Shown: positions 5,341 to 27,135 of the stretch, piece by piece | Numbering within the stretch: the stretch's first letter is position 1 | Layout of the letters: each line of letters opens with the position of its first letter | From: Candidatus Iainarchaeum sp. | GTDB lineage: Archaea; Iainarchaeota; Iainarchaeia; Iainarchaeales; JAZDEL01 | Assembly (NCBI GenBank): GCA_043808785.1 | Contig: JAZDEL010000009.1 | Span: forward strand, 60,001-92,000 | Reading direction: 5' to 3' | Length of the DNA stretch: 32,000 nucleotides | Translations under genes and position numbers: made by a program | The notes under the pieces: model-generated | Told to the model about the DNA's origin: nothing | The model's input: the letters and a program-made list of their open reading frames with translations, nothing else | Databases searched by the model: none

Positions 5341-5355
5341 GTTTTCCACCTCAAG

Positions 5356-5420
5356 CTTTGTTTTTTCAGTTTCGCCCTTTGTTTTTCTGTTTGTTCGCCC
5401 TTTGTTTTTTTCAGTTTTTT
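5356..5420. repeat. three tandem 20-23 nt units (CTTTG-T5-7-C(A)GTTT..CGC) in the spacer between the 747-aa and vWA genes
   Basis: The units are ctttgttttttcagtttcgc, cctttgtttttctgtttgttcgc and cctttgtttttttcagtttttt. On the coding (minus) strand they read as A-rich AAAAACAAAGG(GCGAA) repeats. Confidence 0.6.
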
Positions 5421-8778: not shown

Positions 8779-11478
8779 ATGGGGGCGGGGGAACTGGCTT
8801 TGTTGCTTAAATCCGGAGTTTGGGGCGGGGTTTTGCTTGCAATGGCTGCCCTGGCGTTGTTCGGGGCACTGATTTACGTTGCGCTTCCCGGCTTGGATTT
8901 GCAGGGCACGCCTGCGCAGGGTCAAAACGCGCCTTCGCGGGGCACCGGGCTTTTCACGCTTTTCTTCAGCACATGTAACCCCAACGGAAACTGCCAGCCC
9001 CAGCAGGGCGAGAGCTATTCAACCTGCCCCGAGGATTGCTGCGATGCCGACTGCACGGATTACCAGGACAGCCTCTGCCATGCCGAATGCCAGGGCTACA
9101 ACGGATGCTCGTTCACAAGCGGGTGCAACGGCCTTGCAATAGACACAAATATCTGCATCAGCACAACGCAGCGTGCCGCGTGCTGCTCAGGCTCCGGGCA
9201 GAGCTGCTCGCAGAACCAGTACTGTTCGGGGGGAGGCTGCATTACCTGCTCCACAGTTTGCGACAACACCTGCCAGGGTGCGCAGTGCTACGGCATAGAC
9301 CCGGATTGCGATGCCTCGGGCAACCCCACAGGCCAGTGCTGCGGCAACGGCGTATGCAATGTTGCGGAAACATGCTTCACCTGCAGTGCGGACTGCGGCA
9401 GCCCGGCATGCACCGCGGACGCGAACTGCAATGACGGCAACTCCTCGACAAAGGATGCATGCATAGGCGCAGGCACATGCTCCGCATACTGCCAGAACTG
9501 CTATGTTGCCTGCGACAGCAATGCCTCGTGCAATGACGGCAATTCATTCACGCAGGACACCTGCACTAATCCCGGCACCTGCAATTCCGCGTGCTCTTAC
9601 TGCACGATTAAGTGCAGTTCCGATGCCGCATGCAATGACAATAACTCCTCCACAACCGACTTATGCATAAGCCCGGGTACATGCCCCTCCTACTGCTCTA
9701 ACGCCTCCTCCGGGTGTACGCCGGCCTGCTACACGGACGCGAACTGCAGCGACAGCAATTCGTTCACGCAGGACACATGCACTAACGCGGGCACATGCAC
9801 CGCAGCCTGCCTGCACACCCCATGCACAATCGCCTGCACCTCGAACGCGCAGTGCGACGACAGCAATTCCCTTACTTCGGACACCTGCACTAACGCGGGC
9901 ACATGCACTGCGTCATGCACGCATTCCGCCGCTTCCTGCGAAATCATATGCGCATCGAATGCCGACTGCGACGACGGCATTGCCTCCACAACCGACACCT
10001 GCACAAATGCAGGCACATGCAACGCATACTGCGAGAACACCCTTGCGGAAGAGGGGCAGGATGGGCAGCAGGGCGGGGAGGATAACTGCGCAATCGCATG
10101 CTCCTCTGCGGGGGATTGCGACGACCGCGATGCCCTTACCTCGGATTCCTGCGGCGCTGCCGGAACCTGCAGTGCGGAATGCCGCCATGCGCTTGCCTCC
10201 CCCGCTGCCCTGAACTTCAAAACCTCCCCGCCGAAAACAATACAGCGCGGGCAGAAACTTACGCTTGCTGCCGAGTTCCTTGCCGGCGGCAATCCCGTGG
10301 CAGGCGCCGCACTTGCGCTTTCAGGCACTAAAGGCGAATCCGCAAAGTTCGGGGCAGCAAAAGGCGGAGGCTACCTGGTTTCGTATGAAATCCCCATAGA
10401 TGCCGCGCTCGGGGAGCGCGAGTTCACGGTTTCCGCAAAAAAGGTGCACGCGCTCGGAACGCTTGAGGCCGAGAAAAAGTTCAAGGTTAACGTCGGGCCT
10501 GCGGAGCTCCTTATAACCCTCCTTAAGCCGAAAGCCGCGGACATTAATGCAGGCATCCCTGTAGCCATCGAGGTCGGCATCGCATACCCCTCGGGGGAAG
10601 CCGCAAATGATGCCGAACTGACAGCGGAAATCAACGGCGCGCCCGTTGTTTTCACAAAGCTGCGCGACGGTGTTTATTCCGCGCAGTACACATTCACTTC
10701 CGCGCAGGCGGGCGCGGCAGACCTAACCATGCAGGCAACCGATGCCTACGCAAACCTCGGCTCGAAATCGGTTTCCCTGAATGTGCAGAAGCAGGGCATT
10801 GACCTGCTCCTTGCCCTGCTTTTGGTGCTTTTCGGCGCGCTTGTTCTCGGCATAATAGGCCTCATACTCCTGCTAATAGCCGCGTTGCTTGCCTTTGCCT
10901 CCCTTGCTTATATGAAGGAGCGCAGGGTTGCTGAAATTCTGGCGAGAAAAAAGTGGCTTTTTGCCGCTAAAAATTCCGCAGCTGAAAAGCTCAGGAAAAA
11001 CGAAATCAGCAGGGCGCAATATGATGAACTGTCCGCGAAATACGACTTGGAGATAAAAAAACTTGACGAGTCGCTTGCATTCCTTGAAAAGAGGCGCCCA
11101 ATAGGCGACATATTCCACGATTTGGGGGTTAAGGCAAGGGCATTCATAGATTCGACCGCGCCTGTGCAGCCTAAGCAGGGCGGGGCTGTGCAGGGCAAGA
11201 CTTCAGGGCCTGCACAGGCCGAACCAGGCAAACCATGGCGTGCCAAGCAGGGCGCACAGGCGCAGGCCAAGGCAGCCCCTCCCAAGCCGCTTTCGCCAGA
11301 GGAACGTGCAAAGGTCGATACTGAAATAAACGAAGTTAAGGAAACAATGAAAATCCTTGAAAAGGAATATTTCAAGCGCGCCTTGACGGATCAGGAATAT
11401 AGGCAGAGGATGTTCGACCTGAAGACAAGGCTGCACCTTCTCGAGCTTAAGAAGGGCGGGGGCCTGAGGAAGGGGTAA
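8779..11478 (+). CDS. bitopic Cys-rich repeat surface protein: N-terminal anchor, about 400-aa Cys-rich ectodomain with 7 tandem six-Cys modules, Ig-like region, TM helix, cytoplasmic coiled-coil tail
   Basis: The 899-aa ORF has an N-terminal helix VWGGVLLAMAALALFGALIYVAL. CGNG.C....C..DC-type modules are followed by seven C-x5-C-(N/D)D-x-N-x2-T-x-D-x-C-x5-C-x3-C repeats. The second TM is LLLALLLVLFGALVLGIIGLILLLIAALLAFASLAY. The K/E/Q-rich tail has SHOCT-like motifs. Confidence 0.9.
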   Translation: MGAGELALLLKSGVWGGVLLAMAALALFGALIYVALPGLDLQGTPAQGQNAPSRGTGLFTLFFSTCNPNGNCQPQQGESYSTCPEDCCDADCTDYQDSLCHAECQGYNGCSFTSGCNGLAIDTNICISTTQRAACCSGSGQSCSQNQYCSGGGCITCSTVCDNTCQGAQCYGIDPDCDASGNPTGQCCGNGVCNVAETCFTCSADCGSPACTADANCNDGNSSTKDACIGAGTCSAYCQNCYVACDSNASCNDGNSFTQDTCTNPGTCNSACSYCTIKCSSDAACNDNNSSTTDLCISPGTCPSYCSNASSGCTPACYTDANCSDSNSFTQDTCTNAGTCTAACLHTPCTIACTSNAQCDDSNSLTSDTCTNAGTCTASCTHSAASCEIICASNADCDDGIASTTDTCTNAGTCNAYCENTLAEEGQDGQQGGEDNCAIACSSAGDCDDRDALTSDSCGAAGTCSAECRHALASPAALNFKTSPPKTIQRGQKLTLAAEFLAGGNPVAGAALALSGTKGESAKFGAAKGGGYLVSYEIPIDAALGEREFTVSAKKVHALGTLEAEKKFKVNVGPAELLITLLKPKAADINAGIPVAIEVGIAYPSGEAANDAELTAEINGAPVVFTKLRDGVYSAQYTFTSAQAGAADLTMQATDAYANLGSKSVSLNVQKQGIDLLLALLLVLFGALVLGIIGLILLLIAALLAFASLAYMKERRVAEILARKKWLFAAKNSAAEKLRKNEISRAQYDELSAKYDLEIKKLDESLAFLEKRRPIGDIFHDLGVKARAFIDSTAPVQPKQGGAVQGKTSGPAQAEPGKPWRAKQGAQAQAKAAPPKPLSPEERAKVDTEINEVKETMKILEKEYFKRALTDQEYRQRMFDLKTRLHLLELKKGGGLRKG
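9409..10185 (+). repeat. seven tandem about 34-50-codon six-cysteine modules (in-frame coding repeat)
   Basis: Modules start at C211, C245, C279, C317, C353, C391 and C441. Modules 2, 4 and 5 share long near-identical DNA stretches (ttcacgcaggacac(c/a)tgcactaa... and tgcactaacgcgggcacatgcac). Confidence 0.85.
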
Positions 11479-11585: not shown

Positions 11586-12248
11586 TCAAATCCAGCGCAC
11601 TCCCTTCTTTCCCCTCGAAACTATCGCACCCAGCACGTCGCTCTTTGTTATTATCCCTCTTATTTTCCCCCCGCGCCCGACAAGTACGGCTTGCCCCGAA
11701 TCAAGCAGTGCGGAAACAACCCCGAGCGGGGAATTTTCCCTTATCACAGGCATTGCCTCATCCATGACTTCCTTCACAAGCATCTTTCCCAGGTCTGCGG
11801 GCTTCTCGGACTTGCCTATGCGCGTGAGTATAAACATTTCCGAAACCGTCCCCACTGGCTTGTCATCCTCGAAAACAGGCAATTGGGAAACCGCGTTCTT
11901 TTTCATCACCTGCACCGCCCTTTTCACGGTGTCCTGCGGCCTTACGCTTATCACCCTTGCGCTCATCACGTCCTTTGCCTGCAGTTCGGTTTCCCTGTGC
12001 ATCGCGTCAAGCAAATCGAATATGCGCTTGGCATTATCGTAACTTGGCACAAGCACGCCCGACTCCATCTTTGCAATCAGCGACTGCGACACAGCTGCCT
12101 TTGCGGCGAGTTCCGCCTGGGTAAGCCCAAATTGTTTTCGCCTTTGTTTTATTTCATTTAATTCGGGAAGCACATGAACCAACCCCGCCCCTGCCCATTG
12201 TGCCCGCCAAATGCGGGAAGCATATTCGATTATTATGCCTGCAAACAT
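11586..12248 (-). CDS. XRE-type HTH plus CBS-pair transcriptional regulator
   Basis: The HTH is LNEIKQRRKQFGLTQAELAAKAAVSQSLIAKMESG. Two CBS motifs follow (VMSARVISVRPQDTVKRAVQVMKKNAVSQLPVFEDDKPVGTVSE; VMDEAMPVIRENSPLGVVSALLDSGQAVLVGRGGKIRGIITKSDVL). The true start may be downstream (TTG or GTG near 12176-12185). Confidence 0.85.
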   Translation of the reverse strand: MFAGIIIEYASRIWRAQWAGAGLVHVLPELNEIKQRRKQFGLTQAELAAKAAVSQSLIAKMESGVLVPSYDNAKRIFDLLDAMHRETELQAKDVMSARVISVRPQDTVKRAVQVMKKNAVSQLPVFEDDKPVGTVSEMFILTRIGKSEKPADLGKMLVKEVMDEAMPVIRENSPLGVVSALLDSGQAVLVGRGGKIRGIITKSDVLGAIVSRGKKGVRWI

Positions 12249-12357
12249 TTATAACCCTTATTCCTATGCGAATATTTTATTCAATAATTATTATTAATAA
12301 TCCCGTGCACTATTTGTGTAATATCATTCATATTCTCTTCACTTCGGAGGTTTTCTT

Positions 12358-13566
12358 ATGAAACAGGGAAAATATTTCTTCACGTCGGAGTCCGTAACCG
12401 AGGGGCACCCGGACAAGATGTGCGACCAGATAAGCGATGCCGTGCTCGATGCGGTTTTCGAAAAGGACCCTAACGCACGCGTTGCGTGCGAGTGCGTAAC
12501 TAAAACAGGGATTGTTTTCGTCACGGGCGAGATTACCACAAATACCTATGTCGATATCCAGCGCGTCGTGCGCGACACGATAAAGGACATAGGCTACGAC
12601 GACCCTTCTTTCGGGTTCGACGCCGACGGCTGCGGGGTTATTGCCGCAATCTCCGAGCAGAGCCCCGATATATCCATGGGCGTTACAGAGGGCGAGGGGC
12701 ACGAGCAAGGGGCGGGAGACCAGGGAATGATGTTCGGCTACGCGACAAATGAAACCCCCGAATACATGCCTTTGCCTATTGTGCTCGCGCACAAGCTTGT
12801 GAAGAAACTCTCCGAAGTGCGCAGGGCGAAGGAACTCACATATTTGCGCCCGGACGGAAAAAGCCAGGTTACCGTTGAATACGACAGCGGAAAGCCGATA
12901 AGGGTTGACGCTGTAGTGATTGCGGCACAGCACGCGCCCGATATAACGCACGACCAGATTAAGCAGGACATTATAGGGAAAGTGATTAAGCCCGTCTGCG
13001 GCGAGTGGATTGACGGGAAAACAAAATTCTTCGTGAACGAGACGGGAAAGTTCATTGTTGGCGGCCCTGTTGCGGATTCAGGCCTCACGGGGAGAAAGAT
13101 AATCGTGGACACATACGGCGGCCACGGCTCGCACGGAGGGGGGTGCTTCTCGGGAAAGGACCCCTCGAAAGTGGACAGGAGCGGGGCATATGCTGCGCGC
13201 TACATTGCGAAGAACATAGTCGCTGCCGGCCTCGCGGACAAGTGCGAGGTGCAGTTGGCATACGCAATCGGCGTTGCCGAACCTGTCAGCATTCTGGTGC
13301 ACACCTTCCGCACCAACAAAATCCCCGAGGAAAAAATCTCGGAGTTGGTTCGCAAACACTTCCCCCTGAAGCCGAGGGCGATAATTGACCATCTCAAACT
13401 GCGCAGGCCGATTTTCAGGAAAACCGCGGCATTCGGGCATTTCGGCAGGAACGACCCCGATTTCACATGGGAGAAAACGGATAAAGTCGAGGCGCTGAAG
13501 AAGGATGCAGGGCACCTGCACAAGCCAGCAGTGAGCGGGGATAAGGTGCCGCTGGACGGCGCCTGA
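12358..13566 (+). CDS. metK: S-adenosylmethionine synthetase, bacterial/eukaryotic type
   Basis: [37 protein letters not shown] and [50 protein letters not shown] are near-identical to the E. coli MetK signatures. GGAGG at 12346-12350 lies 7 nt upstream of the ATG. Confidence 0.97.
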
Positions 13567-13596
13567 GTTTTGCGGCAATGCAGGTTCAATTTCGGA

Positions 13597-13619
13597 AAGG
13601 GGCGCATTTTGCGCCCCTT
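13597..13619. terminator. perfect 9-bp hairpin between convergent metK and the 13618 gene
   Basis: AAGGGGCGC-ATTTT-GCGCCCCTT. It overlaps the stop codon of the minus-strand gene and lies 31 nt after the metK stop. Confidence 0.55.
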
Positions 13620-14928
13620 ATGCTCTCTTCCCCCGCGCTTTTCTTAAATTGCGGTCAAAACCGTCGTCAAAATTAAGATTTTTTTTCTTCCGTTGGTCTT
13701 TTGCTACCTCATTTCGTATGCTCCCCTTTATGAATTTCGCAAAATAGCCGTCTATGTTTTTGAAATTCCTGGCATATTTGAGCGCATTTAGAATCCCAAT
13801 TCGCCCATAGTGCATTTTCGCCGCAAATGTAACGTTCATAGCGCCCGGGATGTGTTTCCCTGAAATAATCCTATTAAGTGGTGCGTAAACTTCCAGCAAT
13901 TTCTCCTTTGCTTTAATATCCCCCCGTGCTGCCGAGACAATTAGCCCTTTCTTATCCTCCAGCGGCAGACCCTCATATGTTTGGCTTCCTATTCTCCCCA
14001 GCACCTCTCTGCTGACTGGCGTTCTCTTCAGTTCCTCGTGCTCCCTGACGGCGCGAGCCTTTTGCCTGATTGCCCTCTTGTTTTCTTCGCCTAGGGGCAG
14101 CTGGAGGTTTCTGGAAAATCTGCTTAGGTCTGTTATGCCTGCCCCTAATGCCCTCAAAATGCATTGTGCATTCTCTTTGAGCCTCTCCATGCCGGTTTCC
14201 ATGAGTTCGTTATAGCCCCGCATTTTGGGGGTTATCCCGATATTTTTCAGAAATTCCCGTTTCGCCCCCTCAACATGCTTGGGCACGACCCTCCCCTTGC
14301 TCAGCCGCAGGCGCAAGCGCTGGAAGTCCGGAACGCTGATGCACTGCGCCCCCAGGAAATCCCGCACCCAGCCGTGCCTTTTGCAAATCTTCCTTACGCT
14401 CTCTATGTGCATGTTTGTCGCCCCTTCTCCCTTTAGGACATCAAACGCGTATTCAAAAGGGACAATTCTCCTCATTTCCAGGAAGAGGTTGTTTATTGCC
14501 CAATTGGGCACCCGCCACTGCCCCCCTTTCTTAACCGCGCCGTTTATTTTGCCCTGCTCGCACAACTGTGCCATGGATGCCCTGGTAATGCCAAGCATCC
14601 CGGCAGCGTCCTGGGCACTCACCGCATTCTTGTGCGCCAGCAGCCGCTCCATCTGCTGCCCATCAATTACTATCCGCCCCCTCTCAACAGTTTTTAGCCC
14701 CAACTCGCCCCTGTTGATTTTGTTTCTCAGGGGCTGTATCTTAAATCCGCTTTCCTCAGCAGCCTCGCGGACACTATATGTGCCCTTTTTTGGCTCCACC
14801 TTTGGCAGCAGTTTCGGTTCTGCATCTTTCCAGAGCCCCCTTAGTTCTGAGGCAGGGTGCCCTTTGGAAAGGCCTGAAAGGTAGCGCAGAGTGCGCGCAT
14901 AAGCCTCTTTCTGTATTCTCCGTCTCAT
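13618..14928 (-). CDS. DNA-binding protein: two excisionase/MerR-type HTH domains plus a C-terminal sigma-70 region-2-like domain
   Basis: HTH-like segments are YSVREAAEESGFKIQPLRNKINRGELGLKTVERGRIVIDGQQMERLL and VSAQDAAGMLGITRASMAQLCEQGKINGAVKKGGQWRVPNWAI. The C-terminal GDIKAKEKLLEVYAPLNRIISGKH...GRIGILNALKYARNFKNIDGYFAKFIKGSIRNEVAKDQ aligns by eye to RpoD region 2. The gene is AT-richer than its neighbours. Confidence 0.75.
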   Translation of the reverse strand: MRRRIQKEAYARTLRYLSGLSKGHPASELRGLWKDAEPKLLPKVEPKKGTYSVREAAEESGFKIQPLRNKINRGELGLKTVERGRIVIDGQQMERLLAHKNAVSAQDAAGMLGITRASMAQLCEQGKINGAVKKGGQWRVPNWAINNLFLEMRRIVPFEYAFDVLKGEGATNMHIESVRKICKRHGWVRDFLGAQCISVPDFQRLRLRLSKGRVVPKHVEGAKREFLKNIGITPKMRGYNELMETGMERLKENAQCILRALGAGITDLSRFSRNLQLPLGEENKRAIRQKARAVREHEELKRTPVSREVLGRIGSQTYEGLPLEDKKGLIVSAARGDIKAKEKLLEVYAPLNRIISGKHIPGAMNVTFAAKMHYGRIGILNALKYARNFKNIDGYFAKFIKGSIRNEVAKDQRKKKNLNFDDGFDRNLRKARGKRA

Positions 14929-15042
14929 TTGTTATCGTTAATACAACGAATGCCTGCTTAATTAACTTTACTTTGCGGGTGCTGCCCAACCTGGAGAGCA
15001 AGAACATAAGCGCGGGATGGTTCGCTCTTCGGGGAGAAATAG

Positions 15043-15075: not shown

Positions 15076-15543
15076 ATGCTCGATGACTTTCTGGAGGCGA
15101 ACGGCCTCAAGGCGGAGCTTTTAGTTCCCAAGCGCCCCCTGCGCACCGCTCACGACATTCCGCGCTCGCTTGGGGTCGAAGCCGCAAATGTTGCGCAATG
15201 CGTTCTCGCGCTTGTAGGTACGGCAAAGCGCGCGGAGCACAACGAGGCAATCCTGATTGTCCTTCCTCTCGCGAAAAAATTCGGTGAGGAGGAACTGCAC
15301 GAACTTCTTGGTGCATCAATAGGGGTTCGCTTTGCAACAGAGCACGAAACAGAGGACCTTACAGGCTACCCCGCGGAATTTGTCCCCGTGGTCAGCGTTT
15401 ACGGCGTGCGCACCCTCATAGATGCGGAACTCATGAAAAAGGAATTCATCTACTGCGCAGGCGGGGAAGCGGAGCACGTTCTGAAAATCACGCCCGCGGA
15501 ACTGAAGGAGAACACGGAAGGGATTGAGGAGATTGATGCATGA
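15076..15543 (+). CDS. YbaK/EbsC-type aminoacyl-tRNA deacylase domain protein
   Basis: The 155-aa ORF has the layout typical of the YbaK/ProRS-associated editing domain: KCVLALVG...ILIVLPLAKKFGEEELHELLG...VRFATEHETEDLTGYPAEFVPVVSVYGVRTLIDAEL...IYCAGGEAEHVLKITPAEL. Confidence 0.7.
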   Translation: MLDDFLEANGLKAELLVPKRPLRTAHDIPRSLGVEAANVAQCVLALVGTAKRAEHNEAILIVLPLAKKFGEEELHELLGASIGVRFATEHETEDLTGYPAEFVPVVSVYGVRTLIDAELMKKEFIYCAGGEAEHVLKITPAELKENTEGIEEIDA

Positions 15544-17255
15544 AAAAGTCCCCTGCAGCGGCAAAGGCGGAGAAAATAACCGCCATCTTTACTGACCTTG
15601 ACAACACACTCTGGAGCGGCATTATTGCCGAGGGGCAGGAACCAGTGCTCAGGGAAGATTACTATGCATTCCTGAAAGGGCTTTACGCGAAGGGAATCCA
15701 GATTTTTGCGGTTTCAAAGAACGAGGAAGCGGACCTTGAAAAGGCATTCCGCAAACTCGGCGTGGACAAGGAAATGTTCACAATGGTTGTCGCCAACTGG
15801 GATGCAAAATACCTGAACATAGAGCGCCTGATAAGGCAGGCAAACATCCGCCGGGAAACTGCAGTGTTCATAGATGACAGCCCTTTTGAGAGGGCTGAGG
15901 CTGAAAAAGCCCTGCCCGAAATCCACGTGCTTGATGAAAATGGCTGGCGTGCGGTTCTTGCGAATGAATATGTGAGGGGCAAAAAGGAACAGCCCGCATC
16001 GGAAATAAGGGAGCGCATAAACCGCTACCGCACCGCAATTGCGGCACACCGCGGGGAGCATGCGGAGAAAGAGAGCATTGAATTCCTGCGCAGCCTCGGG
16101 CGCGAACTCAGCATAGGGGAAATTCCCGCGGATAACCTTGACAGGTTTGCGCGCCTGCTTGTGGATACGCACAGGATAAATTTCAATCCCGGGAAGTTCG
16201 GGGATTACGGCAAGGCGCTCGATTACCTGCATCAGCGCATAAATGCGGGGGACAGGCTTTATGCGGTTTCAACGCGCGAGAGCGGCGTTTCCCTGGGCTT
16301 AACAGGCGCGCTTGTGGTTGATGTAAAAGGAAATACTGCAAGCATTGTTGACGGCACATTTTCCTGCGGGATTCTCGGGCGCGGGTTCGAGGGCAAATCC
16401 ATACTTGCACTTGCGGACATTTTACGCAAACAGGGGCTGGAGAGACTGGATATCTTTGTGACCCTTACTGCAACAAACTCGCGTGTGAAGGAAATCCTCC
16501 TTGCTTTGGGATTTTCAGAGGGCAGGCGCATTTCCGGAAAAGCGGGGACAAAGGTCGTTTATTCTGCGGATTTACGCGCTTTCAGGCCCAGAAATGATTT
16601 CGGCTGGATAAAGGTTATTGCCGGTCCGCCAGAAATTAAATATACGGGTCACCCGTTTGTTATTTCATTTTTCGAGGAGAATGTCCTGCCGCTTATCGGG
16701 CAGGGGTTCGGCATTGTGAACCTGGGCTCGGCGCGCGGGGAGTCTATAGGCCATGCTGAGGAAAAGAAGCGGGATGAATTCTATAAACTCCTGCACCAAA
16801 GGGATGTTAAATACACAAAAATAGACGTCGAACATTATCCCGAAGAAAATAATATCGTTGCTGATGCGGAAGACCTTCCCGCCGTGCTCCAAGATGAAAG
16901 CCAGGATTTGGTGCTCGCATTTGAGCTTCTGGAGCACGCGCGCCACTTCTGGAACGTTGTTACTGAAATGGTACGCATATGCAGAACGGGCGGTTACATT
17001 CTGGTTTCAGTGCCCTCCTTTAACTACCCGAAGCATGAATACCCCATCGACCTGTGGCGCATAGGCCCGAAAACCCTGAAGTCGTTCTTTCCCGCTGAAT
17101 ATTTCGAAACAATAAAGTTCGCAACCGAAGGGCAAAAGAACGCACCGCGCAGGGCAATAATCCTCGTGCGCAAGAAAAAGCAATTCACAAAAAAGTTTTC
17201 GATGCCTAATGGCGGGAAAACCGACTGGAAGACGGGATTGACTGTTTTTCTCTGA
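15540..17255 (+). CDS. FkbH-like HAD-IIIC phosphatase / GNAT-like domain fused to a class I SAM-dependent methyltransferase
   Basis: The FkbH/HAD-IIIC motifs are IFTDLDNTLWSGIIAEG, KGIQIFAVSKNEEADLEKAF and NWDAKYLNIERL...AVFIDDSPFERAEA. The C-terminal IVNLGSARGE ... DLVLAFELLEHARHFWNVVTEMVRICRTGGYILVSVP is methyltransferase-like. The start overlaps the upstream stop (ATGA at 15540-15543). Confidence 0.85.
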   Translation: MKKSPAAAKAEKITAIFTDLDNTLWSGIIAEGQEPVLREDYYAFLKGLYAKGIQIFAVSKNEEADLEKAFRKLGVDKEMFTMVVANWDAKYLNIERLIRQANIRRETAVFIDDSPFERAEAEKALPEIHVLDENGWRAVLANEYVRGKKEQPASEIRERINRYRTAIAAHRGEHAEKESIEFLRSLGRELSIGEIPADNLDRFARLLVDTHRINFNPGKFGDYGKALDYLHQRINAGDRLYAVSTRESGVSLGLTGALVVDVKGNTASIVDGTFSCGILGRGFEGKSILALADILRKQGLERLDIFVTLTATNSRVKEILLALGFSEGRRISGKAGTKVVYSADLRAFRPRNDFGWIKVIAGPPEIKYTGHPFVISFFEENVLPLIGQGFGIVNLGSARGESIGHAEEKKRDEFYKLLHQRDVKYTKIDVEHYPEENNIVADAEDLPAVLQDESQDLVLAFELLEHARHFWNVVTEMVRICRTGGYILVSVPSFNYPKHEYPIDLWRIGPKTLKSFFPAEYFETIKFATEGQKNAPRRAIILVRKKKQFTKKFSMPNGGKTDWKTGLTVFL

Positions 17256-17338: not shown

Positions 17339-17575
17339 CTATCTATCGTATATTTCATCCCTTTTCCCGACTAAAATTTTCCCCATGGCAAAGCCTTTCC
17401 GCATGCGCCTTATCTGCCGTTCCATTGCGAGTTCCCTTTCGGGGCGCTCCTCCCTTAGCCCTACTGTTGAAGCACCCCTTGCAATCCCTCTCGCATCCTT
17501 GATGTCCCCGACGGGCACCGCTATGGCAACCCCGCCCTTCTCCAGAACCACAATTCGTTTTTTGCCTTTTTTCAT
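17339..17575 (-). CDS. 78-aa basic protein, unknown function (co-transcribed partner of Fic)
   Basis: The ATG lies 18 nt after the Fic stop and is preceded by GAAGGG. The sequence MKKGKKRIVVLEKGGVAIAVPVGDIKDARGIARG...GKRDEIYDR belongs to no family I can name. Its compact size and C-terminal ...EIYDR resemble small archaeal antitoxin-like proteins only loosely. Confidence 0.5.
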   Translation of the reverse strand: MKKGKKRIVVLEKGGVAIAVPVGDIKDARGIARGASTVGLREERPERELAMERQIRRMRKGFAMGKILVGKRDEIYDR

Positions 17576-17593
17576 GCGAACGCCCTTCGTGCC

Positions 17594-18535
17594 TCAAACA
17601 TATTTCACATAAACCCCGAAGAACTTATCAAATGTCTTCTTGTATTTCTCAAGCATGAACCTTTCGAGGTTCGCGGTGTAGCCGTTGTCGAAATCCTGCA
17701 GGCATTTCAGGTATGCCGTGCGCTGGCTTTTCCTGATTATGAGCGGGGCATAGCCCGCGTTCACAAGCGCGACATTTATCAGGAATCTCCCCACGCGGCC
17801 GTTGCCGTCGTCGAAAGGGTGGATTTTCTCAAACCTGCCGTGGAAGAGCGCGGCTTTCTGCAGGGGGTGCATCTTTTTCTCCCCGCCAAACCAATCCATG
17901 AGTTTTTTCATTTCCTCCCCGACCTTTTCCGGAGCCGCTGTTTCAACTTCCCTGCCGAGCAGGAAGTTAGGAATTTTTTTATAGCCTGTTTCGATGCCCA
18001 TGTCCTTTACCAGGATTTTGTGCATCTTTATTATGTCCGCCTCCTGTGCCCTGAATTTCTTCTTCAGTATGAGGCCGACCACCTCGCGGCTGTTCCTGGT
18101 TTCATAAACCTCCCTCAGGTCAGTTCCCTCGGGAGCCTTGCCCTCGAACAGCACTATTGCGACATCCTTCAAAGTGAGCGAGTTGCCTTCCAGGGCGTTC
18201 GACTCATATGTGAAGTTTACAGTGAACCTGTCGAACAGGTCCTGAAGCTGCTTCTTCGTGAGTTTCGAGATTATTTTCTTGTATTCCCGCCTTGTTTTCT
18301 CAAGTTTGGCGATTTGCTCCCTTGTAAAAATGCCGTCCGTCCCGAACCTTTCGAGCGCGGCTTTTGCGCGCAGTTCGTTCTCCTTTTTCGAGAAGTATTC
18401 CCTCAGGGCTGGCGTAAGGGCTTTTTTGTCCGTGCGCCTGCCTATCTTCACGACCCTGCCGTTCTCCAGCCTGACCGAATGCACGGCATAGCGGTACTTT
18501 TTCCCCTTTATCCTCTTCTCGGTGAAATAAACCAT
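17594..18535 (-). CDS. Fic/DOC-family protein (AMPylase-type), class II with internal inhibitory motif
   Basis: The Fic active-site motif HPFDDGNGRVGR lies at nt 17786-17821. The inhibitory-helix motif (S/T)xxxE(G/N) is present as YESNALEGN. The track ORF starts at GTG 18553, but that GTG lies inside the promoter palindrome only 10 nt from the TATA box. ATG 18535 (MVYFTEKRIKG) is 28 nt from the box. Confidence 0.9.
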   Translation of the reverse strand: MVYFTEKRIKGKKYRYAVHSVRLENGRVVKIGRRTDKKALTPALREYFSKKENELRAKAALERFGTDGIFTREQIAKLEKTRREYKKIISKLTKKQLQDLFDRFTVNFTYESNALEGNSLTLKDVAIVLFEGKAPEGTDLREVYETRNSREVVGLILKKKFRAQEADIIKMHKILVKDMGIETGYKKIPNFLLGREVETAAPEKVGEEMKKLMDWFGGEKKMHPLQKAALFHGRFEKIHPFDDGNGRVGRFLINVALVNAGYAPLIIRKSQRTAYLKCLQDFDNGYTANLERFMLEKYKKTFDKFFGVYVKYV

Positions 18536-18541
18536 ACTAAA

Positions 18542-18588
18542 AGTTAACCCCACAGATTATTTAAATATATGGTTTTTGTGGGGTTAAC
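18542..18588 (-). promoter_or_regulatory. 47-bp palindromic element, copy B, enclosing the Fic TATA box (candidate operator/promoter)
   Basis: AGTTAACCCCAC-AGATTATTTAAATATATGGTTTTT-GTGGGGTTAAC has perfect 11-bp inverted arms. The spacer contains TATTTAAATA, centred about 28 nt upstream of ATG 18535. Confidence 0.7.
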
Positions 18589-21537: not shown

Positions 21538-22110
21538 CTACTTGCCCAGCATGCTTGAGATGTCTTTCCTTGCCGTGTTAAGTATTTTGTCGTAGTTGGC
21601 AAGTATTTTTTTCTCGTGCCCGTTTTTTGGCCCGTGTTTGCGGATTCCCTCATAAAGGTTGTATTCATCTATCGAACCCTTAATTGATATCGGAAGTTCG
21701 CCTTTGTTTAAGACCCTTTGCGCCTCCACCCATGCTATCCGTTCATTGCTGAGGTAAAGTTCCTTTTTCAGCAGACCGTATTTTGTCTTGCGCGAGATAT
21801 TGTCTGAGTTAAGCATGTTAAAAACCTGCCTTGCGTCGGGGTTAACCTTCCCCTTGGCGGATGACAGGAATTCTCTGAAGGATGCCATCTCCTCTTTTGC
21901 CAAATTAACCTCGCCTTTATTTGACAGCACCATATATTTTACAGTTCCTGTGGGGCGCGGTATGGGCCTTGTGTCTACTATTGCCGTTGGCTGCTTCACA
22001 CCCCTGTAATTTTGTTTAATTGCGTGCCCTGCGCCGATGCCAAGCCCGACAATCCCGACGCCTATGCCTATTTTTTTGCCCAGTCCTAATTTTCTTTTAA
22101 CCCCTGCCAT
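21538..22110 (-). CDS. hypothetical N-terminally anchored protein
   Basis: The 190-aa ORF starts MAGVKRKLGLGKKIGIGVGIVGLGIGAG (a Gly-rich hydrophobic anchor), then continues as a Lys/Asn-rich soluble domain. I recognise no family. It is AT-richer than its neighbours (spot counts 28/60 and 26/60 G+C at 21541-21660). Confidence 0.55.
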   Translation of the reverse strand: MAGVKRKLGLGKKIGIGVGIVGLGIGAGHAIKQNYRGVKQPTAIVDTRPIPRPTGTVKYMVLSNKGEVNLAKEEMASFREFLSSAKGKVNPDARQVFNMLNSDNISRKTKYGLLKKELYLSNERIAWVEAQRVLNKGELPISIKGSIDEYNLYEGIRKHGPKNGHEKKILANYDKILNTARKDISSMLGK

Positions 22111-22939: not shown

Positions 22940-23398
22940 GTGCCTGCGGAATGGCTGAAAAAGGAAATCGATTTTTACAAAAACATGCGTTCGCCGCTGA
23001 TACCTTTGCTGCACGAAATCCGCAGGAAGGAGGGGCACCTTTCGCGCGAGAGCCTTGTTTTCATTTCCCGCGAGCTCGGCATACCGTTAAGCCACATATA
23101 TGAGGCAGCGACCTTTTACGCTGAATTCAACCTGAACCCCAAAGGAAAAAACGTCCTCAGGGTTTGCACAGGCACGACCTGCAATGTAAAGGGCGGGAGC
23201 TTCTGCCTGCGCTTCCTGGAGAGGGTTCTTGAAATAAAGCCTGGAGAAACGACCGATAACGGCAAGTTCACTCTTGAAACAGTCAACTGCTTCGGCGCAT
23301 GCAGTGCCGCGCCGGTTATTGAAATAAACGGCGTCCTGCACACAAAGATGGGTTTGCAGGAACTTAAGGAAATAATTTCAAAGATGGGGGCGAAGTGA
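22940..23398 (+). CDS. hydC: NuoE/HydC-type thioredoxin-like [2Fe-2S] subunit
   Basis: LIPLLHEIRRKEGHLS...ISRELGIPLSHIYEAATFYAEF is present. The cluster ligands are CTGTTC (C-x4-C) and CFGACSAAP (C-x3-C). The start is GTG. Confidence 0.9.
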   Translation: MPAEWLKKEIDFYKNMRSPLIPLLHEIRRKEGHLSRESLVFISRELGIPLSHIYEAATFYAEFNLNPKGKNVLRVCTGTTCNVKGGSFCLRFLERVLEIKPGETTDNGKFTLETVNCFGACSAAPVIEINGVLHTKMGLQELKEIISKMGAK

Positions 23399-25342
23399 AT
23401 GGGCAGGGGAAAAGCCGCAGGCGCGAGGGTTAAGCGCACAGCAAAAAAAATTACTAGGCGCGCCACGGGCGTAAAGCACGCAGCGGGGGCGAAGCACGCC
23501 CACAAGGCAAAACACCTGCGCAGCCATATCCGCATAGGCAGTTCGAAGCTCAGGCCGCGTGCCGGCGTTGGAAAAAAACGGGGGCAAATCCAGGTTTCAG
23601 TCGGCGCAGCAAGCTGCGGCATTTCCGCAGGCGCGCTTGCGGTTATTGCCGAGTTCGAGAAGCGGGGCGTGAAGCCGAAGCGCGTAGGGTGCATCGGCAT
23701 GTGCCACGCGGAACCGATTGTCGAGGTGAAATACGGCGATGGGGAGACGCTTGTTTTCGCGCATGCAAACCCTGCGGACGCGAGGAAAATCGCGCACGGC
23801 TTCGGCTTCCTTGAGAAGGGGAAGTTCATTGCGAAAAGGAAGGGCGGAAAAAAGGTTATCGGCGGGCATTACCTTGATGAACTGCCTTTTTTCAAACTTC
23901 AGGAGCGCAGGCTTACCTGGCGCTGCGGAAGGGTAAGCCCCGACAGCCTTGATGATTACCTTGCACACCGGGGTTTCACCGCGCTGCGCAAGGCGCTGAA
24001 AATGAAGCCCGAACGCATTGTTGCGGAGGTAAAGGATTCAAAACTCAGGGGCAGGGGCGGAGCCGCATTCCCCACTGGCCTGAAATGGGAGTTCATGCGA
24101 AAAAGCCCCGAAAAGGAGCGCTACCTGATATGCAATGCGGATGAAGGGGATCCTGGCGTGTTCTCAAACCGCATACTGTTTGAATCAGACCCTTTCGCGG
24201 TTATTGAGGGAATGGTTATCGCAGGTTACGCGCTGGAAGCCACAAAAGGCTTCATTTACATCCGCGCGGAGTACGGGAAATCCATAACCCACCTGAAGCA
24301 CGCGCTTGCGCTTGCAAGGGAAAACAACTTTTTGGGCAGGAAAATCCTCGGCTCGAAATTTTCATTTGACATAGAAATCCGCGAGGGCGCGGGCGCCTAT
24401 GTATGCGGCGAGGAAACCGCGTTAACGCGCAGCATTGAAGGGCTTTCAGGCAGGCCTGTGCCGAGGCCGCCTTTCCCGACCGAGAAAGGGCTCTGGGGAA
24501 AGCCCACGGTGATTCAGAACACGGAAACCCTTACAAATATCCCTTATATTGTGCTCAATGGTTCCGCATGGTTCGGGGAGAAGGGGGTTTCGCACTGCCC
24601 CGGCACGAAGATATTTTCAATAAGCGGTGATATAGCGCACACGGGATATGTGGAGGTCCCGCTCGGGGTTAAGTTAGGCCATCTGCTCGAGCTGCTTGGA
24701 ATTAAAACCCACGAACTGAAAGCCGTTCACCTCGGCGGCCCGAGCGGGGGCTGCCTGCCCATAGCCCTGCACAACACGACGCTCGATTACGATTCGTTGT
24801 GCAATGTGGGCGCTACGGTAGGTTCTGGCAGCATAATTTTCCTCGGAAAGAAGCGCAGCATACCCGAATTCGCGCACAAGTATGTCGGGTTCTTTGTTTC
24901 CGAATCCTGCGGCAAGTGCGTGCCCTGCAGGGAAGGGACGATGCGTTTGCTTGAAACCCTCGATAGGGTTCTTGCAGGCGGGGGAAAAATTTCTGATTTG
25001 AAGGAACTTGACGATTTGAGCGGGAGCATGAAGGATTCAGCGCTCTGCGGCCTCGGGCAGGCGGCGCCCAACGCACTGCAGAGCACGCTGAAATATTTCA
25101 GGGAGGAATACCTTGCGCACATAAGCGGCATGCCCTCGGTTGAAAGCCCGTTTTCCGAATTCATAATAAGCAAACCGCTCTGCAACGGCTGTGATTTGTG
25201 CGTGCGCGTCTGCCCCACTGACGCAATCACGGGCAGAAAGGGCGAGCTGCACGCGATAATCCGGGAGAAGTGCATATGGTGCGGGCACTGTGTGGAAGCG
25301 TGCCCTGTTAAGGCTATACATCTTGAGAGGGTGAAGGTTTGA
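23399..25342 (+). CDS. hydB: NuoF/HydB-type NAD(P)H-binding flavoprotein subunit with N-terminal thioredoxin-like domain and C-terminal 2x[4Fe-4S] ferredoxin domain
   Basis: The signatures are GRGGAAFPTGLKWEF, ICNADEGDPG, GAGAYVCGEETAL, SCGKCVPCREGT, CNGCDLCVRVCP and CIWCGHCVEACP. The ATG directly abuts the hydC stop (TGAATG). The first 62 residues form a Lys/Arg/Ala/His-rich extension. Confidence 0.93.
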   Translation: MGRGKAAGARVKRTAKKITRRATGVKHAAGAKHAHKAKHLRSHIRIGSSKLRPRAGVGKKRGQIQVSVGAASCGISAGALAVIAEFEKRGVKPKRVGCIGMCHAEPIVEVKYGDGETLVFAHANPADARKIAHGFGFLEKGKFIAKRKGGKKVIGGHYLDELPFFKLQERRLTWRCGRVSPDSLDDYLAHRGFTALRKALKMKPERIVAEVKDSKLRGRGGAAFPTGLKWEFMRKSPEKERYLICNADEGDPGVFSNRILFESDPFAVIEGMVIAGYALEATKGFIYIRAEYGKSITHLKHALALARENNFLGRKILGSKFSFDIEIREGAGAYVCGEETALTRSIEGLSGRPVPRPPFPTEKGLWGKPTVIQNTETLTNIPYIVLNGSAWFGEKGVSHCPGTKIFSISGDIAHTGYVEVPLGVKLGHLLELLGIKTHELKAVHLGGPSGGCLPIALHNTTLDYDSLCNVGATVGSGSIIFLGKKRSIPEFAHKYVGFFVSESCGKCVPCREGTMRLLETLDRVLAGGGKISDLKELDDLSGSMKDSALCGLGQAAPNALQSTLKYFREEYLAHISGMPSVESPFSEFIISKPLCNGCDLCVRVCPTDAITGRKGELHAIIREKCIWCGHCVEACPVKAIHLERVKV

Positions 25343-27135
25343 GTAAGGGCAAAAAGCGCGCCGCCGGTTCGGGCTTAAAAAATAAAATGCGCGCCAAGAG
25401 GGCGGCAGGCGGCGGAACAGTTGCAATAAAGGTCGACGGCAGGGAATATTCGGTTAAGCAGCAGTTCCTCCTCGAGGCGCTGAAGGGCATAGGCATAAAA
25501 GTGCCCGCCCTCTGCCATCACCCCGACCTTCCCGCGCTTTCAAACTGCCGCCTCTGTTTGGTCGAAGTGAACGGGCAGGTGAAAACCTCGTGCAACCAGC
25601 GCGTTTTCGGGGGCATGGATGTTGCCACCAGCAGCGCCCGTATCCTGCGGGAGCGGAGGACAAACCTCGAGCTTATCCTGGCAAACCACCCCTTCGAGTG
25701 CGAGGATTGCAGGAGCAACGGGAGGTGCGAACTGCAGGGGCTTGCGGAGGAATTCGGAATCAGCGGATTCAAGATAGCGGGAAAAAAGCGGAACCTGCCG
25801 AAGGACGAGAGCTCGAATGCAATCGTTTTCGACCCTAAAAAGTGCGTGCTCTGCGAGCGCTGCACCGCTGTCTGCGACAGGCAGAAGACAAGCATACTTT
25901 CCCTGATGAACCGCGGCTGGGAAACGATTGTTTCCCCTGTCGGCGGCGCGAAGCTTGCGGACACGCCCTGCGTTTCCTGCGGGAGGTGCACGCTGCACTG
26001 CCCCACAGGCGCGTTCTCGGAGCGCGATGAGGTTGAGGCGGTTCTTGCGGAACTCAACAACCCGAAAAAGAAGGTTGTTGTGCAGATTGCGCCGTCCATA
26101 CGCGTCAGCCTCGGGGAATATTTCGGGATGAAACCCGGAACAATCGCAACCAAAAAAATCGCGACAGCACTGAGGATGTGCGGCTTCGACGCCGTGATTG
26201 ACACCTCTCTCGGGGCGGACATCACGATTGTCGAGGAAGCCACGGAACTTGTGGAGCGCGTGAAAAGCGGGGCATGCCTGCCGCAGTTCACCTCGTGCTG
26301 CCCCGGCTGGGTTTATTATGCGGAATTTTTCCACCCCGAACTTACCGAGCACCTCTCCTCGGCAAAAAGCCCGCACATGATGCTCGGCGCAATAGTGAAA
26401 ACCCATTACGCACAGCAAACCAAAACAAACCCGAAGGACATTGTCGTTGTTTCGATAATGCCCTGCACGGCAAAAAAGGCGGAATCCGACCGCGTTGAAC
26501 ACAAAACGAACGGCATGCTTACAGTGGATTACGTGCTCACAACCCGCGAGGCCGCGAGGATGATGAAAATACTTGGGGTGGATTTGGCGGCGGCGGGGGA
26601 ATCCGGCTTCGACAGCCCGCTGGAAACAATCACGGGCGCGGGGGAAATATTTGCATCCACGGGCGGGGTAATGGAGGCGGCACTGCGCACAGCGCACTTT
26701 TACATTACGGGAAAGGAACTGCCGGATGCAAGGCTCGATTTCAGGGAAGTGAGGGGGCTTGAGGGGGTCAAAAAGGCGACGGTGAACCTCGGGGGGAAGA
26801 AACTGAATGTTGCCGTGGCGCACGGCCTCGAGAATGCGGAAAAACTGATTGAAGAGGTGCATAAAAACCCGGGATGTTTCGATTTCATCGAAATAATGGC
26901 CTGCCCGGGGGGATGTATAGGAGGGGGAGGGCAGCCTGTGCCGCACAGCATGGAAAAGGTCAGGGCACGCATGGAAGGGATATATGCCGCTGACAGGGGC
27001 GCTAAAATAAGGAGAAGCCACCAGAACCCCGCAATAAGGGAAATTTACAAAAAATTCCTGCACAAGCCGGGTTCGGAGAGGGCGCACAAGCTTTTGCACA
27101 CGCGGTATGTGAAGAGGGACAGGTTTAATCCCTAG
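25339..27135 (+). CDS. hydA: [FeFe]-hydrogenase catalytic subunit (NuoG-like N-terminal FeS domains plus H-cluster domain)
   Basis: The H-cluster motifs are TSCCPGW (26290-26310), MPCTAKKAE (26458-26484) and EIMACPGGCIGGGGQP (26890-26937). The N-terminal FeS motifs are C..C in CRLCLVEV, HPFECEDCRSNGRC, CVLCERCTAVC and CVSCGRCTLHCP. The start is either TTG 25339, overlapping the hydB stop, or ATG 25387. Confidence 0.95.
   Translation: MSKGKKRAAGSGLKNKMRAKRAAGGGTVAIKVDGREYSVKQQFLLEALKGIGIKVPALCHHPDLPALSNCRLCLVEVNGQVKTSCNQRVFGGMDVATSSARILRERRTNLELILANHPFECEDCRSNGRCELQGLAEEFGISGFKIAGKKRNLPKDESSNAIVFDPKKCVLCERCTAVCDRQKTSILSLMNRGWETIVSPVGGAKLADTPCVSCGRCTLHCPTGAFSERDEVEAVLAELNNPKKKVVVQIAPSIRVSLGEYFGMKPGTIATKKIATALRMCGFDAVIDTSLGADITIVEEATELVERVKSGACLPQFTSCCPGWVYYAEFFHPELTEHLSSAKSPHMMLGAIVKTHYAQQTKTNPKDIVVVSIMPCTAKKAESDRVEHKTNGMLTVDYVLTTREAARMMKILGVDLAAAGESGFDSPLETITGAGEIFASTGGVMEAALRTAHFYITGKELPDARLDFREVRGLEGVKKATVNLGGKKLNVAVAHGLENAEKLIEEVHKNPGCFDFIEIMACPGGCIGGGGQPVPHSMEKVRARMEGIYAADRGAKIRRSHQNPAIREIYKKFLHKPGSERAHKLLHTRYVKRDRFNP

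Follow-up and report, generated by a model that had tools for sequence, protein, structure and literature searches.

Organization of the locus

The stretch of DNA analysed here, called the window below, covers 32,000 nucleotides of contig JAZDEL010000009.1 (positions 60,001 to 92,000 of the forward strand). Our subject is one gene on its minus strand (13618..14928), the product of which had been presented in a preliminary description, made from the sequence alone, as a fusion of two helix-turn-helix (HTH) segments with a module resembling region 2 of σ70 factors (σ2). The open reading frame (ORF) is complete, with an ATG start and 436 codons plus a stop, so that translation bore out the position and length given for it, and it is regarded as coding (chance P ~1e-4 for an open frame of such composition). 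On the gene map of the window it lies, as described, between metK (convergent) and a ybaK-like gene (divergent). The three nucleotide ranges quoted for its domains also translate as given, the sigma-like peptide beginning five residues inside the range 13693-13938. The features of the locus are the following.

14958..14965 (-), TATA-like box TTAATTAA, 30-37 nt 5' of the ATG, a putative archaeal promoter with a very short leader
13618..14928 (-), complete ORF of a predicted orphan multidomain DNA-binding protein (from the sequence and its status as a cluster singleton)
14785..14928 (-), N-terminal residues 1-48, basic and predicted to be helical (helices from a low-confidence model)
14638..14784 (-), HTH_17 repeat 1, residues 49-97, divergent (Pfam stretch; subtype profile 9.6 bits over 49-76)
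14485..14628 (-), HTH_17 repeat 2, residues 101-148, a canonical 'GA.K.G..W.(I/V)P' excisionase-type winged HTH (best Pfam stretch 104-145; subtype profile 57.4 bits over 103-144)
13969..14484 (-), residues 149-320, mostly helical, no homologues or family matches
13995..13996 (-), best-fit codon-usage breakpoint, after codon 311 (G+C content at third codon positions, GC3, 0.65 upstream vs 0.45 downstream)
13687..13968 (-), residues 321-414, helical module weakly similar, in colinear order, to σ70 regions 1.2/2.1-2.4, all scores below the family thresholds
13687..13968 (-), motifs read in the same module: ARGDIKAKEKLLEVYAPL, GRIGILNAL and FIKGSIRNEVAKDQR
13621..13686 (-), basic C-terminal tail, residues 415-436, KKKNLNFDDGFDRNLRKARGKRA (sequence read)
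13596..13617 (-), GGGGCGC-AAAAT-GCGCCCC hairpin and a TTT after it, where the gene and metK converge, between their stop codons

No Shine-Dalgarno (SD) sequence was present in the upstream region of the gene, and the promoter scan found no σ70-type promoter near it. Residues 1-48 matched no family in the Pfam, NCBIfam and PHROG profile scans. The hairpin has a perfect 7-bp GC stem and was missed by a simple terminator scan because its T run is short; it may be a bidirectional terminator or an RNA-stability element.

Tandem HTH_17 modules and their relatives

The two tandem excisionase/MerR-like HTH segments of the preliminary description were recovered with Pfam HTH_17 (PF12728), which scored 39.1 bits (E 9.3e-10) in two stretches, above the gathering score of 27 bits. 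In a profile of the subtype, built from 131 repeat units drawn from remote phmmer matches, the second repeat scored strongly and the first much less so (values above). The second repeat is also the only segment of the protein for which single-sequence AlphaFold2 gave a pLDDT (predicted local distance difference test) above 70. A third repeat or degenerate winged HTH at residues ~160-212 was hinted at by the pattern of secondary structure and is unsupported, the repeat profile being non-significant at 172-184. Other matches of this part were weak: TIGR01764 (E 0.042), PHROG excisionase families (E 1e-3 to 0.06) and, in NCBIfam, the HTHs of IS607 transposases. Among the PADLOC defence models, too, only the HTH part of the protein found matches. 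In Pfam neither MerR nor MerR_1 matched and the C-terminal part had no family match; a MerR-family regulator was rejected on this ground and on that of architecture (HTH, dimerisation coiled-coil and effector domain).

The subtype of the second repeat ('GA.K.G..W.IP') forms arrays in transcription regulators of bacterial phages and mobile genetic elements (MGEs). One such protein (P0007) combines a genuine Sigma70_r2 domain (24.9 bits, above the Pfam cutoff) with a σ4-like segment and three HTH_17 repeats. Another (P0020), encoded in a phage, has σ4-like segments and six HTH_17 repeats, and its gene lies directly upstream of a Sigma70_r4 gene and a holin/CHAP-endolysin cassette. Of the remaining relatives, P0002 is on a phage-like contig with methyltransferases and a sliding clamp, and P0025 in a bacterial MGE/conflict island. 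In phage and MGE transcription regulators, sigma modules thus travel in company with this HTH subtype, the domain order being opposite to that of our protein. The kinship with mobile-element regulators that had been proposed is therefore upheld indirectly: the nearest HTH_17 relatives belong to bacterial phages or MGE islands, some of them being fusions with genuine sigma modules. Common to the P0007/P0020 type and our protein are the tandem 'GA.K.G..W.IP' modules, the co-occurrence of sigma-type (here sigma-like) and HTH_17 parts in one polypeptide and a likely role in transcription regulation. The differences are that the sigma module of P0007 is N-terminal whereas the sigma-like part is here C-terminal, that our protein has only two repeats, the first of them degenerate, and no σ4, that no similarity is detectable outside the HTH, and that those proteins are bacterial or phage-borne, whereas ours is encoded in an archaeal genome without phage context.

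A phage fragment of this layout deserves mention in its own right (L094:502-5102). It encodes a 723-aa protein with σ4-like segments and six HTH_17 repeats; behind it come the genes for a Sigma70_r4 protein, an r1t-type holin and a CHAP endolysin. This is a candidate late-gene regulator pair, and we know of no earlier description of a pair of this kind.

Search for homologues

In a word-index search the protein formed a cluster of its own among ~15 billion proteins. Exhaustive phmmer comparison with 1.84 billion representative proteins gave 43 other matches at E <=1e-3, all of which align via residues ~50-152 (the HTH_17 modules, with repeat 2 covered in every case) and none of which touches residues 160-436. 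For residues ~150-436 no homologue was detectable in this set or in collections of genomes, viruses, metagenomes, phages and plasmids. GTDB genomes, IMG/VR and JGI metagenomes contained no relative of the protein, also when the C-terminal fragment alone was used, and tblastn against phages and plasmids returned sub-threshold fragments only. No positional orthologue was found by synteny at MetK loci, where only the HTH-CBS gene is in common, or at the loci of relatives (53-59% identity) of the HAD-methyltransferase encoded in the window, where no neighbours are in common. Since no homologues were found beyond the HTH, no alignment could be built.

Resemblance of the C-terminal module to sigma region 2

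The alignment with E. coli RpoD that had been made by eye proved reproducible (residues 336-413, 22 of 82 columns identical, two gaps), albeit its excess over chance is only marginal (calibrated E 0.0013-0.04). About 90 helical residues are colinear with the σ2 domain of group 1-3 factors (RpoD, RpoS, FliA/WhiG), and three motifs (2.1, 2.2 and 2.3/2.4) are found in the correct order and spacing: (i) 'GD..AKE.L...Y.PL' at the 1.2/2.1 junction, common to our protein and σ2, with 'GD..AK' kept, (ii) 'G.IG(I/L)LNA(L/V)' of region 2.2, which reads GRIGILNAL here and GGIGLLNAV in FliA and (iii) '(F)IKGSIRNEV..DQR' at 2.3/2.4, in which the 'I(K/R)..I' pattern is kept. The D-L-x-Q-E-G-x-x-G-L of region 2.2 aligns to A-K-M-H-Y-G-R-I-G-I with its glycines and hydrophobic residues conserved; at 2.3/2.4, where the alignment is gapped, Y395 and the I-K/R..I pattern align and the WW pair falls on K-F.

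Among curated models, the best non-HTH match was NCBIfam WhiG (E 0.037 for the whole protein), which on residues 318-419 reached 18.5 bits and E 0.0013 over model positions 30-105. The general σ70 superfamily model TIGR02937 followed (13.9 bits, E 0.031, model positions 4-76 of 165). Of the NCBIfam sigma matches only that to WhiG is above noise; a reversed copy and three shuffled copies of the fragment matched no sigma model of that library. The sole C-terminal signal in Pfam was to positions 3-25 of HTH_16, on LIVSAARGDIKAKEKLLEVYAPL (E 0.022 for the whole protein, 0.008 for the fragment). The PDB sequence search did not find a sigma, and the phage sigma families in PHROGs show no similarity to the protein. 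The best plasmid tblastn match of the C-terminus was to residues 2-106, i.e. σ2, of an annotated Streptomyces sigma factor of the extracytoplasmic function (ECF) type (30% identity over 111 columns, database-level E 0.1).

On a profile of 120 sequences of an ECF subfamily related to the plasmid match, our protein took third place among 3,586 decoy ORFs, the first two being real sigmas, and none of 20,000 shuffles scored as high. On a target-independent σ2 profile (E. coli RpoD, RpoS, RpoH, FliA and RpoE), residues 324-414 aligned to positions 4-94 with 17.8 bits, a score reached by 0 of 20,000 shuffles; on the same profile two genuine ECF sigmas scored 19.9 and 21.7 bits and the σ2 of P0007 7.8 bits. 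The empirical false-positive rate of this profile is ~1 in 3,600 ORFs. With hhalign, probabilities of 40-61% were obtained (pairwise P 8e-5 to 3e-4), the alignment to the E. coli profile spanning regions 2.1-2.4. Finally, the fragment was ranked by Smith-Waterman score against seven target-independent σ2 domains, in comparison with 2,623 length-matched fragments of long ORFs. It fell in the top 0.08% for RpoD, 0.27% for RpoS, 2.3% for FliA, 11% for RpoH and 18% for RpoE (Mann-Whitney P 0.001), L070 and P0007 being unremarkable; 20 shuffled fragments gave roughly uniform P values.

The statement that no region 4 follows was confirmed: Pfam gave no Sigma70_r4 or r4_2 match, and an E. coli σ4 profile reached 2 bits, confined to the HTH_17 region. 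Nor did this profile support a σ4-like HTH in residues 240-300.

Ancestry of the C-terminal module

Sigma is the only family to which the C-terminus points; the signals run colinear and withstand the controls, but lack mutual independence. Several observations weigh against a σ2 origin, or against the wider reading of the protein as a DNA-binding regulator: (i) Pfam Sigma70_r2 (PF04542, cutoff 24 bits), the model by which the proposal was to be checked, was unreported at E <=10 for both the whole protein and the fragment, (ii) the NCBIfam matches, at 13.9-18.5 bits, compare with cutoffs of 42.9 (TIGR02937) and 343 bits (WhiG), (iii) an unrelated ATP-synthase γ model matches at 13.1 bits, level with TIGR02937, (iv) only two sigma models match, whereas the divergent genuine σ2 of P0007 matches six (22.5 bits) and σ2-only fragments of ordinary ECF sigmas match 78-80 (47-56 bits on TIGR02937), (v) the ECF-subfamily profile covers residues 325-366 only (11.8 bits), (vi) on the five-sequence E. 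coli profile an unrelated aspartate 1-decarboxylase (PanD, L080:5471-6001) scores 20.8 bits (nominal E 6e-5), and addition of one ECF sequence lowers our protein to 9.8 bits, so that the result is not robust, (vii) region 2.2 has A, H and Y in place of the core-binding D, Q and E, and region 2.3 has K-F in place of the Trp pair (WW), (viii) the AlphaFold2 single-sequence model has a pLDDT of 42 over the full length and 52 over residues 314-436, and Foldseek with the latter, low-confidence model gave no PDB match at E <0.96 and (ix) DNA binding, targets and partners are all inferred. Because PanD scored higher and a single added sequence cut the score, nominal E-values of the home-made profiles are unreliable; those of ~1e-7 obtained with home-made σ2 profiles were discarded as miscalibrated and the empirical ranks kept. 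Of the region-2 module first proposed, the colinear resemblance over ~324-414 is reproducible, but no profile match is significant by family standards (WhiG, E 0.0013).

Chance resemblance has to be taken seriously in view of these results, and we give it a little under an even chance. The C-terminal ~290 residues would then be a helical extension, either fast-evolving or formed de novo (an oligomerisation domain, for example), of an orphan HTH_17 regulator. Sigma scores close to noise, the silence of Sigma70_r2, a false positive that outranks the protein, the dependence on profile composition, the loss of diagnostic residues in regions 2.2 and 2.3 and the lack of homologues and of a confident fold are all in keeping with it; moreover, the ORF was picked for looking sigma-like, which inflates apparent significance. 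It accounts less well for the fact that five tests with different libraries or methods rank sigma first among the non-HTH signals, colinearly over the same ~90 residues, for the absence of sigma matches with reversed and shuffled controls, for the order and spacing of the motifs and for the existence of genuine fusions of sigma modules to HTH_17 repeats. Judging from the sequence, we would put σ2 ancestry of residues ~321-414 at an even chance. The C-terminal module would, with about that likelihood, stem by domain shuffling from the σ2 of an MGE-type regulator of the 'sigma plus HTH_17 repeats' kind and would since have lost the motif that binds the bacterial core enzyme.

The protein is not a sigma factor: region 4 and the DLxQEG motif are missing, and it fails every family threshold. 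It also differs from σ2 proteins in that regions 3 and 4 are both missing, scores fall far under all curated thresholds, the σ2-like domain is C-terminal to the DNA-binding modules (in sigma factors it is N-terminal) and the RNA polymerase (RNAP) of its host is archaeal.

A functional σ2-type module can nevertheless be envisaged. In archaeal RNAP, the clamp coiled-coil corresponds structurally to the β' clamp helices bound by σ2, and the phage T4 protein gp55, which consists of a σ2 only, directs transcription with partner proteins. An archaeal DNA-binding protein could have captured the domain, possibly from a virus or plasmid, as an 'inverted' sigma analogue in which the HTH_17 pair replaces region 4 and chooses the site; the σ2 remnant would contact the clamp coiled-coil, melt the promoter or bind single-stranded promoter DNA, and would activate or inhibit TBP/TFB-dependent initiation. 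We regard this as unlikely. It would fit the sigma-like signal (WhiG, the E. coli profile and the rank test), the position of the HTH domains N-terminal to the σ2-like part, where they could stand in for σ4, and the existence of phage regulators, located by late or lysis genes, in which sigma modules are joined to the HTH_17 subtype found here. The gp55 precedent is apt in that there, too, only a σ2-like part is present and targeting to promoters or activation depends on other elements; gp55, however, works with bacterial RNAP, gp33 and the sliding clamp, and our protein showed no similarity to the phage sigma families of PHROGs. Against a working σ2 stand the loss of the β'-binding D, Q and E of DLxQEG and of the melting Trp pair, the purely hypothetical nature of the interaction, a homology that itself has but an even chance, the lack of mobile-element hallmarks around the gene and the absence of orthologues, owing to which there is no sign of purifying selection on the 321-414 module.

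The general statement that Archaea have no sigma factors, on which the initial surprise was founded, goes too far for DPANN. In DPANN genomes, particularly of Woesearchaeota, σ70-class genes (fam00359) are reported by Castelle et al. (2021; PMC8204110), with mis-binning excluded and no anti-sigma factors found. This report raises the prior for a sigma-derived module and lowers the surprise, and the persistence of such genes without anti-sigma factors is a further point for a functional σ2. As described there, fam00359 resembles our gene in being bacterial-type and sigma-related, with no anti-sigma factor and no assigned function; it is set apart by that same description, in being σ70 by family annotation, whereas our protein goes unrecognised by standard σ70 models, is fused to HTH_17 modules and is a singleton.

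Composition and signs of mobility

The spot G+C counts given earlier for 13621-13740 are exact (26/60 and 24/60, against a mean of 34.1/60 in hydA). They do not make the gene AT-richer as a whole: its G+C content (GC) is 0.512, inside the range of window genes (0.44-0.58), and only the 3' 378 nt are AT-richer (0.431 vs 0.544). When the expected GC3 was derived from the amino-acid content of the segment and the codon usage of the window, codons 321-435 showed 0.470 instead of 0.640 ± 0.042 (0 of 5,000 simulations as low), whereas codons 2-320 were near expectation (0.633 vs 0.676). The best single codon-usage breakpoint falls after codon 311 (~nt 13995, log-likelihood ratio 7.2), ~10 codons from the start of the sigma-like alignment. 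These values are suggestive of a separate, AT-richer origin of the 3' module, joined to a resident 5' part. They are no more than suggestive because GC3 also dips at codons 1-60, i.e. the gene is compositionally uneven overall, which counts against the foreign-module reading.

Two other genes of the window have a low GC. The radical-SAM/SPASM gene at 27200-28348 (+), just downstream of hydA, is strongly atypical and similar in composition to the 3' third of our gene (GC 0.438, GC3 0.49 vs 0.65 expected) and may be a recent transfer. The ORF at 21538-22110 is also low (GC 0.464).

Insertion of the entire gene as part of a mobile element found no support. Flanking the gene there are no att-like direct repeats, only short imperfect matches at chance level, and the 32-kb window contains no integrase, recombinase or tRNA and gave no Rfam matches; recent acquisition of the whole gene is hence unsupported, and only the 3' module is compositionally foreign. 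For the same reasons we consider it very unlikely that the protein is an excisionase (recombination directionality factor) or another part of an integrated virus or plasmid, with HTH_17 modules that bend att DNA for an integrase. Its two N-terminal modules do belong to the fold family of the excisionase/MerR superfamily (HTH_17, TIGR01764), with the weak excisionase and IS607 matches reported above, and a candidate defence gene (Fic/PDC-S04-like) lies 2.7 kb away. Excisionases, however, are typically single-domain proteins of 50-80 aa encoded beside an integrase, a size far exceeded by the 436 aa of our protein with its two tandem copies and no recombinase nearby; in addition, the 5' two-thirds of the gene have host-like codon usage and relatives are missing from the viral, phage and plasmid collections. 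Membership among excisionases was rejected accordingly, on size, on the lack of an integrase among the window ORFs and on the lack of convincing flanking repeats.

Probable archaeal context of the window

The window very probably comes from a DPANN-like archaeon, as far as sequence comparison can tell; this is accepted because of the relatives of MetK, synteny with the HTH_3-CBS gene, TATA-like boxes and the lack of a σ70-type promoter near our gene. It bears out the archaeal-type context of the preliminary description. Among 185,579 species representatives, the best relatives of MetK are in metagenome-assembled genomes (MAGs) labelled archaeon (71%), Methanosarcinales archaeon (70%), Micrarchaeota (66%) and Nanoarchaeota (64%), and these archaeal/DPANN relatives are nested in an otherwise bacterial family. 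Three of the MetK contigs carry an HTH_3-CBS gene beside metK, as the window does. Boxes of the TTTAAA/TTAAATA type were found 22-45 nt 5' of the start, without SD sequence, for 8 of 24 genes against a background of 1.9% (P ~1e-8); SD-like motifs were seen chiefly at genes inside operons (metK, hydA, hydB, HAD-MT). By sequence criteria, this pattern is a signature of archaeal-style promoters and leaderless mRNAs. The 32-kb window contains no universal marker gene.

A bacterial (e.g. Candidate Phyla Radiation, CPR) or chimeric scaffold, which would render a sigma fragment unremarkable, could be argued from the bacterial type of MetK, HydABC, NifS and YbaK, from the MetK relatives at 60-66% identity, mostly Bacillota, and from the bacterial origin of the closest HTH_17 relatives, yet it is quite improbable given that the two best MetK matches and two more are archaeal/DPANN MAGs (three with HTH_3-CBS beside metK), that TrmB and HTH_3-CBS regulators are present, that promoters are of the TATA-box, leaderless kind with SD-like motifs mainly operon-internal, that no σ70-type promoter lies near the gene and that DPANN genomes carry many bacterial-type genes, according to PMC8204110.

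Two observations concern the neighbourhood itself. At 11586-13566 the bacterial-type metK is head-to-head with the gene for the HTH_3-CBS regulator, and the same pair is present in MAGs labelled archaeon, Micrarchaeota and Nanoarchaeota (L001, L004 and L032); as judged by sequence, it is a conserved DPANN gene pair around a bacterial-type enzyme. TATA-like boxes are located, e.g., upstream of 962, 8779, 15076, 22339, 29720(-) and 14928(-).

Proposed function and its implications

Taken together, the data are best explained, and this we think rather likely, by a real lineage-specific gene of a probable DPANN-type archaeon that encodes a sequence-specific DNA-binding transcription regulator; a lineage-specific transcription regulator is the most likely function of the protein. 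We infer that its tandem winged-helix HTH_17 modules bind DNA, probably at paired adjacent half-sites. The C-terminal helical module would serve as an effector or interaction surface, and the basic tail may add non-specific contacts with DNA or RNA.

If the C-terminal module is derived from σ2 and functional, parts of the bacterial initiation machinery would be reusable by archaeal, eukaryote-like transcription, and a specific protein would be at hand for tests of the unexplained σ70 genes of DPANN archaea. The 'inverted' analogue, if real, would be the first bacterial sigma module rewired to an archaeal polymerase. If the module is not derived from σ2, we are left with another orphan HTH regulator from a lineage that has been little sampled, and the lesson is mainly methodological: several tools may reproduce a sigma alignment made by eye, at E ~1e-3 to 1e-1, without its being proven as long as homologues are lacking. 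As the PanD case illustrates, small home-made profiles can yield badly miscalibrated E-values.

Other genes and features of the window

The genes of the window include those for a TrmB regulator, the HTH_3-CBS regulator, bacterial-type MetK, a YbaK-like editing domain, a HAD-methyltransferase fusion, a Fic protein, NifS, an HydCBA [FeFe] hydrogenase, a radical-SAM protein, TraB and large VWA and Cys-rich surface proteins. At 22940-27135 (+) there is a complete HydC-HydB-HydA operon for a trimeric (bifurcating-type) [FeFe] hydrogenase.

The HAD-hydrolase/methyltransferase fusion (15540-17255, 571 aa) has its relatives (53-59% identity) on metagenome contigs L095-L100, which are much lower in GC (0.33-0.45) and have no neighbours in common with the window; this gene appears to be mobile or patchily distributed. 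In the 17339-18553 (-) region, 2.7 kb from our gene, a Fic-domain protein is encoded that matches the PADLOC families PDC-S04 (E 8e-40) and SoFic, listed as candidates for defence. A 78-aa ORF (17339-17575) with no family match is close downstream of the Fic gene, and the two may constitute a toxin-antitoxin or defence pair.

At 8779-11478 (+) an 899-aa protein is encoded that has many Cys-rich repeats of the 'C..A.C.D.N..T.D.C...GTC.A.C' type, a C-terminal transmembrane segment and a coiled-coil tail. No Pfam family matched, and we take it for a probable surface protein specific to the lineage; the adjoining VWA (1031 aa) and NPCBM-associated (747 aa) proteins are likewise surface-protein-like. 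Upstream of the VWA gene (-), at ~5350-5420, lies an A-rich intergenic region with a tandem-like repeat, AAACAAAGGGCGAA(C/A).

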